64,000 nucleotides of DNA, from assembly GCF_058153355.1 (NCBI RefSeq), contig NZ_CM177019.1. One strand, written 5' to 3'. The translations under genes and the position numbers were made by a program. The notes under the pieces were generated by a model. It did not search any database. It was not told where the DNA came from and saw nothing but the letters and a program-made list of their open reading frames with translations. Of the stretch, positions 11,355-56,769 are shown one piece after another. The stretch's first letter is position 1. Each line of letters starts with the position of its first letter.

Positions 11355-12107
11355 ATGACCATTAAAAATGTAATTTGCGATATCGACGGCGTGCTGATGC
11401 ACGATAACGTCGCCGTACCGGGTGCAGCGGAATTTTTGCACGGGATTATGGATAAAGGCCTGCCGCTGGTGTTGCTGACCAACTATCCTTCGCAGACCGG
11501 GCAAGATCTGGCGAACCGCTTTGCCACTGCGGGTGTCGATGTGCCGGACAGCGTGTTTTATACCTCCGCGATGGCGACCGCCGATTTCCTGCGTCGCCAG
11601 GAAGGTAAGAAAGCGTATGTGGTGGGCGAAGGCGCACTGATTCATGAACTGTACAAAGCCGGTTTCACTATTACCGATGTGAACCCTGATTTTGTGATTG
11701 TTGGCGAAACGCGTTCCTACAACTGGGACATGATGCATAAAGCAGCCTATTTCGTCGCTAACGGTGCACGCTTTATCGCCACCAACCCGGACACCCACGG
11801 GCGCGGTTTTTATCCGGCCTGTGGCGCGCTATGCGCGGGGATCGAAAAAATCTCCGGACGTAAACCGTTCTATGTTGGTAAGCCGAGTCCGTGGATCATC
11901 CGCGCAGCATTAAACAAAATGCAGGCGCATTCGGAAGAAACGGTGATTGTCGGCGATAACTTGCGCACCGACATTCTGGCGGGCTTCCAGGCCGGTCTGG
12001 AGACGATTCTGGTGCTTTCTGGTGTTTCATCGCTCGACGATATCGACAGTATGCCGTTCCGCCCAAGCTGGATTTACCCGTCAGTCGCTGAAATCGACGT
12101 TATCTGA
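11355..12107 (+). CDS. nagD: UMP phosphatase NagD/UmpH (250 aa), HAD superfamily
   Basis: MTIKNVICDIDGVLMHDN... HAD motif I (DIDGV); correct length. Confidence 0.93.
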   Translation: MTIKNVICDIDGVLMHDNVAVPGAAEFLHGIMDKGLPLVLLTNYPSQTGQDLANRFATAGVDVPDSVFYTSAMATADFLRRQEGKKAYVVGEGALIHELYKAGFTITDVNPDFVIVGETRSYNWDMMHKAAYFVANGARFIATNPDTHGRGFYPACGALCAGIEKISGRKPFYVGKPSPWIIRAALNKMQAHSEETVIVGDNLRTDILAGFQAGLETILVLSGVSSLDDIDSMPFRPSWIYPSVAEIDVI

Positions 12108-12159
12108 ATACCACCCACGTCTGCGGACGTGGTTGGCTCTGATGACAAACGCCAAACTG

Positions 12160-13407
<1,248 letters not shown>

Positions 13408-13502
13408 CATGCCTGCAATCTGGGAAACCGGGGTAGAAAAAAACTTGCAGGCCATAACAGTATCTACGCAGCTCCTGCAATATATTGAATTTTCATGCTT
13501 TT

Positions 13503-13539
13503 GTAGGCAGGATAAGGCGTTCACGCCGCATCCGGCATG
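13503..13539. repeat. REP element downstream of the IS
   Basis: GTAGGCAGGATAAGGCGTTCACGCCGCATCCGGCATG. Confidence 0.5.
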
Positions 13540-13783
13540 AACAAATCGCACTTTGTCAGCAATTTGGCCCCCGTAAAATATAACCATTTAATAAAACCCG
13601 CTAAAAATTATCGATTCATCAATAAATACATCCTCACACCAGACCTTTTTTCACCAATCGACAATCACCATTACGTTTTTTATTCCCCCCCTGCCAAATC
13701 GCTTGCGCACAGTGCTGCTTTGCGGCATTTTTTTAAACAAGCAAACACAACAAGCAACAAATACCAGGTTAACGGAGAAGGTT

Positions 13784-15448
13784 ATGTGTTCAATTTTTGG
13801 CGTATTCGATATCAAAACAGACGCAGTTGAGCTGCGTAAGAAAGCACTCGAGCTGTCACGCCTGATGCGTCATCGTGGCCCGGACTGGTCCGGTATTTAT
13901 GCCAGCGATAACGCCATTCTCGCCCACGAACGTCTGTCCATTGTTGACGTTAACGCGGGGGCGCAACCTCTCTACAACCAACAAAAAACGCATGTGCTGG
14001 CGGTAAACGGTGAAATCTACAACCACCAGGCATTGCGCGCTGAATATGGCGATCGTTACCAGTTCCAGACCGGGTCTGACTGTGAAGTGATCCTCGCGCT
14101 GTATCAGGAAAAAGGGCCGGAATTTCTCGACGATTTGCAGGGCATGTTCGCTTTTGCCCTGTACGACAGCGAAAAAGATGCGTATCTGATTGGTCGCGAC
14201 CATCTGGGGATCATCCCACTGTATATGGGCTATGACGAACATGGTCAGCTGTATGTGGCCTCAGAAATGAAAGCCCTGGTGCCGGTATGCCGCACGATTA
14301 AAGAGTTCCCGGCGGGGAGCTATTTGTGGAGTCAGGACGGCGAAATCCGTTCTTATTATCACCGCGACTGGTTCGACTACGATGCGGTGAAAGATAACGT
14401 GACCGACAAAAACGAGCTGCGTCAGGCGCTGGAAGATTCCGTTAAAAGCCATCTGATGTCTGACGTGCCTTACGGTGTGCTGCTTTCTGGTGGTCTGGAT
14501 TCCTCAATTATTTCCGCGATCACCAAGAAATACGCCGCCCGTCGCGTGGAAGATCAGGAACGCTCTGAAGCCTGGTGGCCGCAGCTGCACTCCTTTGCTG
14601 TAGGTCTGCCGGGTTCACCGGATCTGAAGGCAGCCCAGGAAGTGGCAAACCATCTGGGCACTGTGCATCATGAAATTCACTTCACTGTACAGGAAGGTCT
14701 GGATGCCATCCGCGATGTTATTTACCACATCGAAACCTATGACGTGACGACTATCCGCGCTTCAACGCCGATGTATTTAATGTCGCGTAAGATCAAGGCG
14801 ATGGGCATTAAAATGGTGCTGTCCGGTGAAGGTTCTGATGAAGTGTTTGGCGGTTATCTCTACTTCCACAAAGCACCAAACGCCAAAGAGCTACATGAAG
14901 AGACGGTGCGTAAACTGCTGGCCCTGCATATGTATGATTGCGCGCGTGCCAACAAAGCGATGTCAGCCTGGGGCGTGGAAGCGCGCGTTCCGTTCCTCGA
15001 CAAGAAATTCCTCGACGTGGCAATGCGTATTAACCCACAGGATAAAATGTGCGGTAACGGCAAAATGGAAAAACACATCCTGCGTGAATGTTTTGAAGCG
15101 TATCTGCCTGCAAGCGTGGCCTGGCGGCAGAAAGAGCAGTTTTCCGATGGCGTCGGTTACAGTTGGATAGACACTCTGAAAGAAGTGGCGGCGCAGCAGG
15201 TTTCTGATCAACAACTGGAAACTGCCCGTTTCCGCTTCCCGTACAACACGCCGACCTCAAAAGAAGCGTATCTGTACCGGGAGATCTTTGAAGAACTGTT
15301 CCCGCTACCGAGCGCCGCTGAGTGTGTACCGGGCGGCCCGTCCGTCGCGTGTTCTTCCGCTAAAGCGATTGAATGGGATGAGGCGTTCAAGAAAATGGAC
15401 GATCCGTCTGGTCGTGCGGTTGGCGTTCACCAGTCGGCCTATAAGTAA
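13784..15448 (+). CDS. asnB: Asparagine synthetase B, glutamine-hydrolysing (554 aa)
   Basis: ATG at 13784 after AACGGAGAAGG gives MCSIFGVFDIKTDAVELRKK... (N-terminal Cys nucleophile); correct length. Confidence 0.96.
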   Translation: MCSIFGVFDIKTDAVELRKKALELSRLMRHRGPDWSGIYASDNAILAHERLSIVDVNAGAQPLYNQQKTHVLAVNGEIYNHQALRAEYGDRYQFQTGSDCEVILALYQEKGPEFLDDLQGMFAFALYDSEKDAYLIGRDHLGIIPLYMGYDEHGQLYVASEMKALVPVCRTIKEFPAGSYLWSQDGEIRSYYHRDWFDYDAVKDNVTDKNELRQALEDSVKSHLMSDVPYGVLLSGGLDSSIISAITKKYAARRVEDQERSEAWWPQLHSFAVGLPGSPDLKAAQEVANHLGTVHHEIHFTVQEGLDAIRDVIYHIETYDVTTIRASTPMYLMSRKIKAMGIKMVLSGEGSDEVFGGYLYFHKAPNAKELHEETVRKLLALHMYDCARANKAMSAWGVEARVPFLDKKFLDVAMRINPQDKMCGNGKMEKHILRECFEAYLPASVAWRQKEQFSDGVGYSWIDTLKEVAAQQVSDQQLETARFRFPYNTPTSKEAYLYREIFEELFPLPSAAECVPGGPSVACSSAKAIEWDEAFKKMDDPSGRAVGVHQSAYK

Positions 15449-15462
15449 GAAAGGCGGTACTG

Positions 15463-15490
15463 CCCCGGAGAAATCCGGGGCTGTTTCAGT
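15463..15490 (+). terminator. Candidate terminator downstream of asnB
   Basis: CCCCGGAGAAATCCGGGG hairpin followed by CTGTTTCAGTT (weak T-tract). Confidence 0.45.
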
Positions 15491-15759
15491 TATTGAGCTG
15501 CTTGTTGATTCTCATATGCAGTAAGGAAATGTTCCGGGTTTGCCACATCACTGTTTGACAACTCATCACTGTAGGCCAGTACTTCATAGATTAATTTCCT
15601 ACCACTATTGTTGAATTCCGAATTTCATCCTGTATGACAAAAGAATGGCTGTAGGGTGGGGAAAAAACACAAAGTAAACAATAATTGACGAATATAGCGC
15701 CACGCTGTTCGCAACCTAACCAAACAGTCACTTTCGAGCAATTTTCCTTGAAAAAGAGG

Positions 15760-15788
15760 TTGACGCTGCAAGGCTCTATACGCATAAT
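15760..15788 (+). promoter_or_regulatory. Sigma-70 promoter of the seven-tRNA operon
   Basis: TTGACG (15760-15765), 17-bp spacer, CATAAT (15783-15788), then GC-rich discriminator GCGCCCCGC; AT-rich UP-like stretch upstream. Confidence 0.5.
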
Positions 15789-15827
15789 GCGCCCCGCAAC
15801 GCCGATAAGGTATCGCGAAAAAAAGAT

Positions 15828-26081: not shown

Positions 26082-26990
26082 ATGCAATTACGTAAACCTG
26101 CCACAGCAATCCTGGCCCTGGCGCTTTCCGCAGGACTGGCACAGGCAGATGACGCCGCCCCGGCAGCAGGCAGTACGCTGGACAAAATCGCCAAAAACGG
26201 TGTGATTGTCGTCGGTCACCGTGAATCTTCAGTACCTTTCTCTTATTACGACAATCAGCAAAAAGTGGTGGGTTACTCGCAGGATTACTCCAACGCCATT
26301 GTTGAAGCAGTGAAAAAGAAACTCAACAAACCGGACTTGCAGGTGAAATTGATTCCGATCACCTCACAAAACCGTATTCCGCTGCTGCAAAACGGCACTT
26401 TCGATTTTGAATGTGGTTCTACCACCAACAACGTCGAACGCCAGAAACAGGCGGCTTTCTCCGACACTATTTTCGTGGTCGGTACGCGCCTGCTGACAAA
26501 AAAAGGCGGCGATATTAAAGATTTTGCCGATCTGAAAGACAAAGCCGTCGTAGTCACTTCCGGCACCACCTCTGAAGTTTTGCTCAACAAACTGAATGAA
26601 GAGCAAAAAATGAACATGCGCATCATCAGCGCCAAAGATCACGGTGACTCTTTCCGCACCCTGGAAAGCGGTCGTGCCGTTGCCTTTATGATGGATGACG
26701 CTCTGTTAGCCGGTGAGCGAGCGAAAGCGAAGAAACCAGACAACTGGGAAATCGTCGGCAAGCCGCAGTCTCAGGAAGCCTACGGTTGCATGTTGCGTAA
26801 AGACGATCCGCAGTTCAAAAAGCTGATGGATGACACTATCGCTCAGGTGCAGACCTCCGGTGAAGCGGAAAAATGGTTTGATAAGTGGTTCAAAAATCCA
26901 ATTCCGCCGAAAAACCTGAACATGAATTTCGAACTGTCGGACGAAATGAAAGCACTGTTCAAAGAACCGAATGACAAGGCACTGAACTAA
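26082..26990 (+). CDS. gltI: Glutamate/aspartate periplasmic binding protein GltI (302 aa)
   Basis: ATG at 26082 after AAGGAG gives MQLRKPATAILALALSAGLAQA signal peptide; correct length. Confidence 0.95.
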   Translation: MQLRKPATAILALALSAGLAQADDAAPAAGSTLDKIAKNGVIVVGHRESSVPFSYYDNQQKVVGYSQDYSNAIVEAVKKKLNKPDLQVKLIPITSQNRIPLLQNGTFDFECGSTTNNVERQKQAAFSDTIFVVGTRLLTKKGGDIKDFADLKDKAVVVTSGTTSEVLLNKLNEEQKMNMRIISAKDHGDSFRTLESGRAVAFMMDDALLAGERAKAKKPDNWEIVGKPQSQEAYGCMLRKDDPQFKKLMDDTIAQVQTSGEAEKWFDKWFKNPIPPKNLNMNFELSDEMKALFKEPNDKALN

Positions 26991-27146
26991 TTACAAGAAC
27001 CAGGGGCGGAAATTCCAGCCCTCTCGATTGTTACGTAGCACGGACAGACTATACGCCTGATGGTCGTTCCCCATCGGGCCTGAAAACCGCAATACGCTGG
27101 GTAACAATCTTCGAGGGTAGCAGTTAACGCTGCTACCCTTTTTTTT
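26991..27146 (+). ncRNA. sroC: SroC sRNA region (processed from the gltI-gltJ intergenic part of the gltIJKL mRNA)
   Basis: Location only: intergenic segment ending at the intrinsic terminator; SroC is known to derive from this position; sequence identity not verified from memory. Confidence 0.45.
27115..27146 (+). terminator. Intra-operon rho-independent terminator between gltI and gltJ
   Basis: GGGTAGCAGTTAACGCTGCTACCC hairpin followed by TTTTTTTT. Confidence 0.7.
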
Positions 27147-27159
27147 CTGGAGTAGATTT

Positions 27160-56337: not shown

Positions 56338-56367
56338 AAAAAAAACCCGCTGATTAAGCGGGTTTTG
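56338..56367. terminator. Bidirectional terminator between crcB and cspE
   Basis: AAAAAAACCCGCTGATTAAGCGGGTTTTGAATT. Confidence 0.7.
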
Positions 56368-56385
56368 AATTCTTGCTGACGTATC

Positions 56386-56595
56386 TTACAGAGCGATTAC
56401 GTTTGCAGCAGAAGGGCCTTTGGCACCGTTAGTGATTTCGAACTCTACGCGCTGACCTTCAGCAAGAGTTTTAAAACCATTAGTCTGGATTGCAGAGAAG
56501 TGTACGAACACGTCTTTGCTGCCGTCTTCCGGAGTAATGAAACCGAATCCTTTGGACTCATTAAACCACTTAACGTTACCTTTAATCTTAGACAT
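56386..56595 (-). CDS. cspE: Cold-shock-domain protein CspE (69 aa)
   Basis: [37 protein letters not shown]... (RNP1/RNP2 motifs). Confidence 0.95.
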
Positions 56596-56769
56596 CAAAA
56601 TTACCTTTACATGAAAAATAGACACAAATGCTGTGTCGGTTACCAGTACACCAATTGTGGTACGCTTTGTCCAGTGCAACTTTACTAAAAAGTGATAAAA
56701 GTCGCGTTATTTTTGATGTTAATTATTTTACTCATTGATTTTAAAGAAGTTACTAAAATTTCATTTGTC

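Follow-up and report, generated by a model that had tools for sequence, protein, structure and literature searches.

Is the promoter of IS621 complete only when the element has left the chromosome? The question is raised by a copy lodged in an E. coli chromosome, whose right end carries a −35-like hexamer and whose left end carries a −10-like hexamer. The DNA that we analysed, here called the window, is a stretch of 64,000 nucleotides (contig NZ_CM177019.1 of RefSeq assembly GCF_058153355.1). It belongs to the ordinary core chromosome of E. coli and runs fldA-fur-chiP-glnS-nagE-nagBACD-asnB, then through a cluster of seven tRNAs, and on from ubiF. A 1280-bp insertion (12186-13465) sits in a REP element between nagD (11355-12107, plus strand) and asnB. 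The gene nagD is co-oriented with it, and the element begins 78 nt past the nagD stop codon. The insertion is an intact IS621, a member of the IS110 family and the E. coli mobile element from which bridge RNAs first became known. It is 97.6-99.6% identical to the copies annotated ‘IS110-like element IS621 family transposase’, which are present in 2244 of 5426 complete E. coli genomes. The features on which the following argument depends are collected in table 1.

Table 1. Features of the IS621 copy and of its insertion site, in window coordinates (LE and RE, left and right non-coding ends).
Feature	Position	Strand	Remarks
IS621 element	12186-13465	+	1278 bp plus one CT core copy, counted at the right end
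TGCGCT, integrated-state −35 position	12165-12170	+	poor match, 2/6
Left target half	12177-12185	+	LT ATCAGGC plus core CT (core copy 12184-12185), in REP element
LE	12186-12377	+	192 nt; aligned end to end with the published 191-nt LE
−10 hexamer TATTAT	12188-12193	+	left end
Bridge RNA	12200-12377	+	178 nt; inferred transcription start A12200, on the basis of published RNA-seq
Bridge RNA 5′ stem-loop	12200-12232	+
Target-binding loop guides	LTG 12249-12257; RTG 12277-12280	+
Donor-binding loop guides	LDG 12323-12330; RDG 12362-12365	+
IS621 recombinase gene	12378-13358	+	326 aa, intact ORF
RE	13359-13463	+	105 nt; aligned end to end with the published RE
GC-rich hairpin	13382-13401		just past the recombinase stop; reads like a terminator only on the minus strand, where its T-run lies
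−35 hexamer TTGCAG	13445-13450	+	right end
Left donor half	13457-13465	+	LD ACAGTAT plus core CT
Right target half	13466-13470	+	RT ACGCA, in REP element; complementary to bridge RNA TGCGTAG (RTG region)

How firmly are the ends of the element fixed? When the two flanks are joined via a single CT they form one contiguous match, of 99.4% identity, in other E. coli genomes. Because this empty nagD-asnB site is contiguous in other strains, the boundaries of the element and its CT core are fixed. The CT occurs on both sides of the integrated element and once in the empty site, which corresponds to a scarless insertion at a 2-nt core. The window target is the published 11-nt wild-type IS621 target, ATCAGGCCTAC. 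The same site is filled in 123 of the 5426 genomes; the window copy has therefore been inherited. A repeat search found no terminal inverted repeats of the element, and the search for internal direct and inverted repeats returned nothing apart from the known hairpins. The neighbourhood varies among strains that share the insertion: relative to window 15449-15827, strain 2017-02-2CC (NZ_AP027764.1, 15449-16258) is about 431 bases longer between asnB and the first tRNA-Met, and the additional stretch carries a minus-strand ORF for a 146-aa hypothetical protein that the window lacks.

How does this copy differ from those already described? Compared with the copy of E. coli O26:H11 it shows 97.6% nucleotide identity across 1280/1279 nt, with 31 differences. 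The recombinases of the two copies differ by four amino acids (S45R, A86V, A90S, M251L), and at these four positions the O26:H11 residues agree with the published IS621 protein, as far as that protein was compared. The window recombinase has the two expected Pfam domains, DEDD_Tnp_IS110 at residues 8-152 (E = 2.2e-24) and, in its C-terminal part, Transposase_20 (PF02371) at residues 196-280 (E = 7.5e-26), and it keeps the catalytic residues D11, E60, D102 and D105 together with the conserved serine S241. The LE departs from the published LE by two substitutions and a 1-nt insertion, confined to 12259-12266 in the apical hairpin of the target-binding loop; the RE departs from the published RE by five substitutions, every one of them upstream of the −35. 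Promoter, guides and catalytic residues are untouched by the differences of this variant copy. Constancy of the hexamers within IS621 must be read with care: at 2.4% divergence some 1.2 changes are expected per 50 nt, and the finding of zero changes in the 50-nt junction is uninformative for that reason. The variant hairpin of 12259-12266, minus its extra T, is also seen in published orthologue rows. The hairpin just past the recombinase stop (13382-13401) looks like a terminator directed against antisense transcription from the asnB side, not one that would end the recombinase transcript, because its T-run lies on the minus strand only.

Where does the bridge RNA begin? The published bridge RNA starts AGTGCAGAGAAAATCGG. 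In the window, A12200 opens AGTGCAGAG (in its longer form AGTGCAGAGAAAATCGG), so that the published start falls at the base equivalent to 12200. The bridge RNA is one nucleotide longer than the 177 nt of the reference because of the 1-nt LE insertion, and its guide segments are unchanged. The predicted fold has an energy of −65.7 kcal/mol (z = −4.5). The guides fit this site and this element: eight of the nine LTG bases (ATCGGGCCT) agree with the left flank ATCAGGCCT; the RTG region, TGCGTAG, can pair with CTACGCA of the right flank; the LDG, ACAGTATC, equals the RE end, and the RDG CAAG is complementary to CTTG. A search of 11800-13900 against Rfam 15 (E ≤ 1) matched no bridge RNA family. It matched only weak REP-related sRNA models (naRNA4, ES036), located in the right flank and all below gathering score. 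Elsewhere in the window two ordinary Rfam matches exceed the gathering score: an sroC sRNA at 26986-27148, on the plus strand in the gltIJKL region, and, at 56338-56751 on the minus strand, a thermoregulator 5′ UTR of the cspA type. The copy at the same site in NZ_AP027764.1 has T, not A, at the inferred start base 12200, and G, not T, at 12377, the last base before the ATG.

What is formed when the two ends meet? The preliminary description had placed TTGCAG near the right terminus and TATTAT at the left one, with transcription starting at A12200 once they were joined, and had assigned a poor TGCGCT to the −35 position of the integrated copy. Re-reading the bases bears out each of these statements. 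At the right end TTGCAG is followed by GCCATAACAGTAT (13451-13463) and the core CT (13464-13465). The left end begins with TG (12186-12187), then TATTAT, CCCTCC and A12200. Joined, the ends read TTGCAG, a 17-bp spacer GCCATAACAGTATCTTG, TATTAT, 6 nt, and A12200, the first base of the bridge RNA. In the integrated state TGCGCT, with only two of the six consensus bases, occupies the place of TTGCAG. Base for base, the rebuilt 50-nt junction (13441-13465 plus 12186-12210) is the IS621 donor that Durrant et al. list in their Supplementary Table 1. The 11-nt programmable donor ACAGTATCTTG, made of 13457-13465 plus 12186-12187, lies wholly within the 17-bp promoter spacer. The published donor-library oligo, GCCATA-N11-TATTAT, varies exactly these 11 bases while TATTAT is kept constant and the natural promoter is relied on (Durrant et al., PMC11208160). 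A reading of TGTATTAT as an extended −10 was discarded: its TG falls at −14/−13, one base too close compared with the canonical −15/−14 (TGnTATAAT).

The feature is, very probably, the known hybrid junction promoter of IS621, Pjunc. Durrant et al. (Nature 2024, PMC11208160) reported a reconstituted IS621 promoter, and their small-RNA-seq covers about 177 nt of the LE starting at a predicted sigma-70-like promoter. That signal came from a plasmid carrying only RE-LE (PMC11208160). Later papers name the promoter Pjunc, and PMC12288879 describes Pjunc for IS621. A 2026 preprint (10.64898/2026.03.19.712850) placed the IS621 leader, taken from Pjunc up to the start codon, in front of sfGFP; according to the same preprint the 5′ stem-loop, window 12200-12232, damps downstream expression.

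How good a promoter is it on paper? TTGCAG has three of the six bases of TTGACA and TATTAT five of the six of TATAAT; TATTAT is in the top 0.12% of the window's hexamers. With a simple sigma-70 weight matrix, an approximation of our own in which the consensus scores 18.3 bits, the junction site scores 11.25 bits and is the best in a 200-nt junction; its integrated equivalent scores 6.85 bits. Sites that score as well turn up about once in 8 kb on each strand of the window, and in 3.4% of 200-nt tiles. Taken alone, the junction hexamer pair is a modest match, and it would fail a standard 9-of-12 consensus filter. On the plus strand, between the end of nagD and the start of the recombinase, the matrix found no site above 8.3 bits in its scan. 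A consensus scan of 11900-13800 returned 0 promoter-like sites, under criteria that the junction site itself would also miss. The best internal candidate is TTGTAT (12185-12190, the T of the core included), 17 bp, and GAAAAT (12208-12213), at 8.3-8.8 bits. This weak TTGTAT/GAAAAT site exists in the integrated and the circular states alike, and transcription from it would begin within the bridge RNA's 5′ stem-loop.

Is the arrangement shared with relatives? We examined 45 reconstructed 50-nt donor (circle junction) sequences of diverse IS110 orthologues, which Durrant et al. give in their Supplementary Data 1. In 34 of these 45 junctions the best sigma-70-like site straddles the nominal core. 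The commonest register, with the −35 at position 5, a 17-bp spacer and the −10 at position 28, is that of IS621 itself, and TTGAC is carried by 18 of the 45. A second alignment was anchored solely on the left donor arm AGT/GGT, independently of the promoter hexamers, and comprised 38 rows. In the columns aligned to the IS621 TTG the counts were T24, T26 and G23 of 38; in the −10 columns they were T37, A30 and T27, with T26 for the final T, and weakly conserved columns lay between. The TTG and TAT..T columns thus stand above their neighbours. About one quarter of the sampled orthologues have no recognisable −35 at that place. Part of the −10 conservation may not concern transcription, because the −10 overlaps the right donor (TGTATT), which is conserved for recombination. 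We conclude that the junction site rises above chance because it is placed across the core, its start coincides with the 5′ end of the bridge RNA, its integrated context is poorer, and it is conserved in orthologues.

Could the left end nevertheless suffice by itself? TATTAT is a strong −10 with a TG just before it. On such a reading it would fire without any −35, integrated copies would make similar bridge RNA, and TTGCAG would be incidental or kept for another reason, for example protein binding at the donor. Excision from the chromosome does need bridge RNA and recombinase before any circle exists. Moreover, a 22-bp donor truncation of RE-LE, described as eliminating the −35 box and accompanied by a loss of recombination (PMC11208160), is not a clean −35 test, because it removed the bridge RNA gene too. 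Yet the TG lies at −14/−13 and not at the −15/−14 of an extended −10. The TTG(AC) of orthologues is conserved at a fixed 17-bp distance and outside the 11-bp donor that the RNA recognises, as expected of a −35, and measurements on ISPpu10 put its junction far above its native promoter in strength (PMC12288879). The RNA-seq signal from the plasmid with RE-LE only (PMC11208160) speaks against this reading as well. We therefore regard a −35-independent left-end promoter as very unlikely.

Still less credible, to our minds extremely improbable, is that the hexamer pair arose by chance and that bridge RNA and recombinase are transcribed mainly by read-through from nagD on the same strand. The co-orientation of nagD, the 78 nt that separate its stop from the element, and the 3.4% of tiles with a site of such score would all allow it. 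But a hairpin follows the nagD stop, and at the left junction the REP hairpin precedes CUUGUAUUAU; both would be expected to impede read-through. Chance would also leave unexplained the conservation among orthologues and the RNA-seq signal from the plasmid with RE-LE only (PMC11208160). The preliminary description's model of a split promoter, which is also the published model for IS621, is supported: the junction 50-mer is the published IS621 donor, sequence scans find no comparable site in the integrated state, and orthologues conserve the arrangement.

How would the split promoter operate through the cycle of the element? In the integrated copy about 1.25 kb lies between the −35 of the right end and the −10 of the left end, which moreover stand in the wrong order, and for that reason neither hexamer would work as a promoter. 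The recombinase, according to the literature, would excise a circle at the CT core and so join 13465 to 12186. The abutted ends would then form TTGCAG-17 bp-TATTAT, from which sigma-70 RNA polymerase would start at A12200. The transcript would be the bridge RNA, and recombinase mRNA would arise by read-through past the 5′ stem-loop. The recombinase would bind the bridge RNA, again as described in the literature. Because the 11-bp donor is part of the promoter spacer, a single event would create both the promoter and the recombination substrate. Integration at a further REP site would split promoter and donor once more: REP TGCGCT would replace the −35 and expression would go down. Every IS621 insertion falls at one and the same place in the REP consensus, so that a TGCGCT-type REP sequence would always fill the −35 position. 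The off state would seem, from the bases of target and element, to be built into the choice of target.

Two additions to this scheme are possible, and we think them rather unlikely. One is that the recombination complex, once assembled on the circle, might exclude RNA polymerase, since the donor forms the junction promoter's spacer and shares bases with the −10 through its right arm. If this were true it would amount to negative feedback, in which the circle expresses bridge RNA and recombinase until enough complex has formed and then silences itself just before integration. The other concerns the left junction. In window 12159-12195 the REP hairpin (about 12159-12183; GCCUGAUG...UAUCAGGC) directly abuts the U-rich start of the element, CUUGUAUUAU, an arrangement that is missing from the empty site. 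It is terminator-like, and could insulate the integrated copy from nagD read-through. It resembles ISPpu10, for which a hairpin terminator contributed by the target has been reported at the left junction of the integrated element (preprint 10.64898/2026.03.19.712850); that terminator was tested, whereas the one in the window is suggested by sequence.

A copy outside the window presents the left junction in another form. In E. coli O26:H11 str. 11368 (NC_013361.1), IS621 lies between rsmS and mscK (locus 2486-2520), with the left flank ...GCCTGATGCGCTACGCTTA-ACAGTAT-CT/TGTATTATCC. The 7 nt before its core are the element's own left-donor bases, where REP ATCAGGC is expected. The full 11-nt donor ACAGTATCTTG thus stands in the chromosome at the left end, without the −35, and the right junction is normal. 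The 81-nt left-flank pattern is common to all of the best 12 matches listed, most of them O26-type strains. Heteroduplex repair or a displaced crossover during recombination could have left the donor bases in this flank.

How widespread is the principle? Among elements with DDE transposases that form circles or dimers (IS911, IS30, IS21, IS2), an outward-facing −35 at one end and an inward-facing −10 at the other are joined when the circle or tandem dimer forms. These elements differ from IS621 in that their DDE transposases are unrelated, they have terminal inverted repeats and a few host bases between the joined ends, and they use no guide RNA. The closest comparison is of course the published IS621 (PMC11208160), which shares with the window copy the element, the 50-nt junction, the −35, the spacer, the −10, the 5′ end of the bridge RNA and the REP target; the window copy differs as a 97.6% variant, in the apical hairpin of the LE, in the RE upstream of the −35 and at 4 aa. 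ISPpu10 of Pseudomonas putida, also of the IS110 family, has a Pjunc of the same construction, with a right-end −35 and a left-end −10 across a CT core (PMC12288879, 10.64898/2026.03.19.712850). It too has a REP target and a bridge RNA that starts at the reconstituted promoter. In ISPpu10, unlike IS621, a strong junction promoter was measured with lacZ against a weak native promoter, and the bridge RNA is without the 5′ stem-loop that IS621 has. ISEc11 also has a Pjunc (Prosseda et al. 2006), but, so far as the papers citing that work describe it, it is of the IS1111 family, with subterminal inverted repeats and a non-coding RNA (seekRNA) region downstream of tnp. ISPpu9 shares with IS621 the IS110 family, the REP target and the formation of circles; at its minicircle junction, however, no hybrid promoter arises, and a native promoter serves tnp (PMC12288879). 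Because ISPpu9 has none, the junction promoter is frequent without being universal, which agrees with the roughly 25% of orthologue junctions in which no −35 is recognisable.

Is the promoter, then, active only in the circle? The preliminary description had said so, and on this point its wording was stronger than the evidence for IS621. ‘Only’ is too strong because an integrated copy must supply some bridge RNA and recombinase before the first excision can occur. We found in the literature no published reporter comparison of the IS621 junction with the integrated left end. We infer that the window copy is active and that, while integrated, it is expressed at a low level and not silent. Circle formation is reported for the family (PMC11208160). 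Among the 5426 complete E. coli genomes we found no contiguous RE-LE junction, in tandem copies or in assembled circles; this is expected because the circle is transient, and the genomes therefore offer no independent sequence evidence of circles here.

What does the locus contribute? The junction promoter is real, was correctly read, and has already been published for IS621; there is nothing conceptually new in it, and the window adds one more natural variant of IS621. That the native promoter contains the donor site is relevant to the engineering of bridge recombinases. For the biology of the family, the split promoter explains how IS110-family elements tie the expression of guide RNA and recombinase to the transposition-competent circle.
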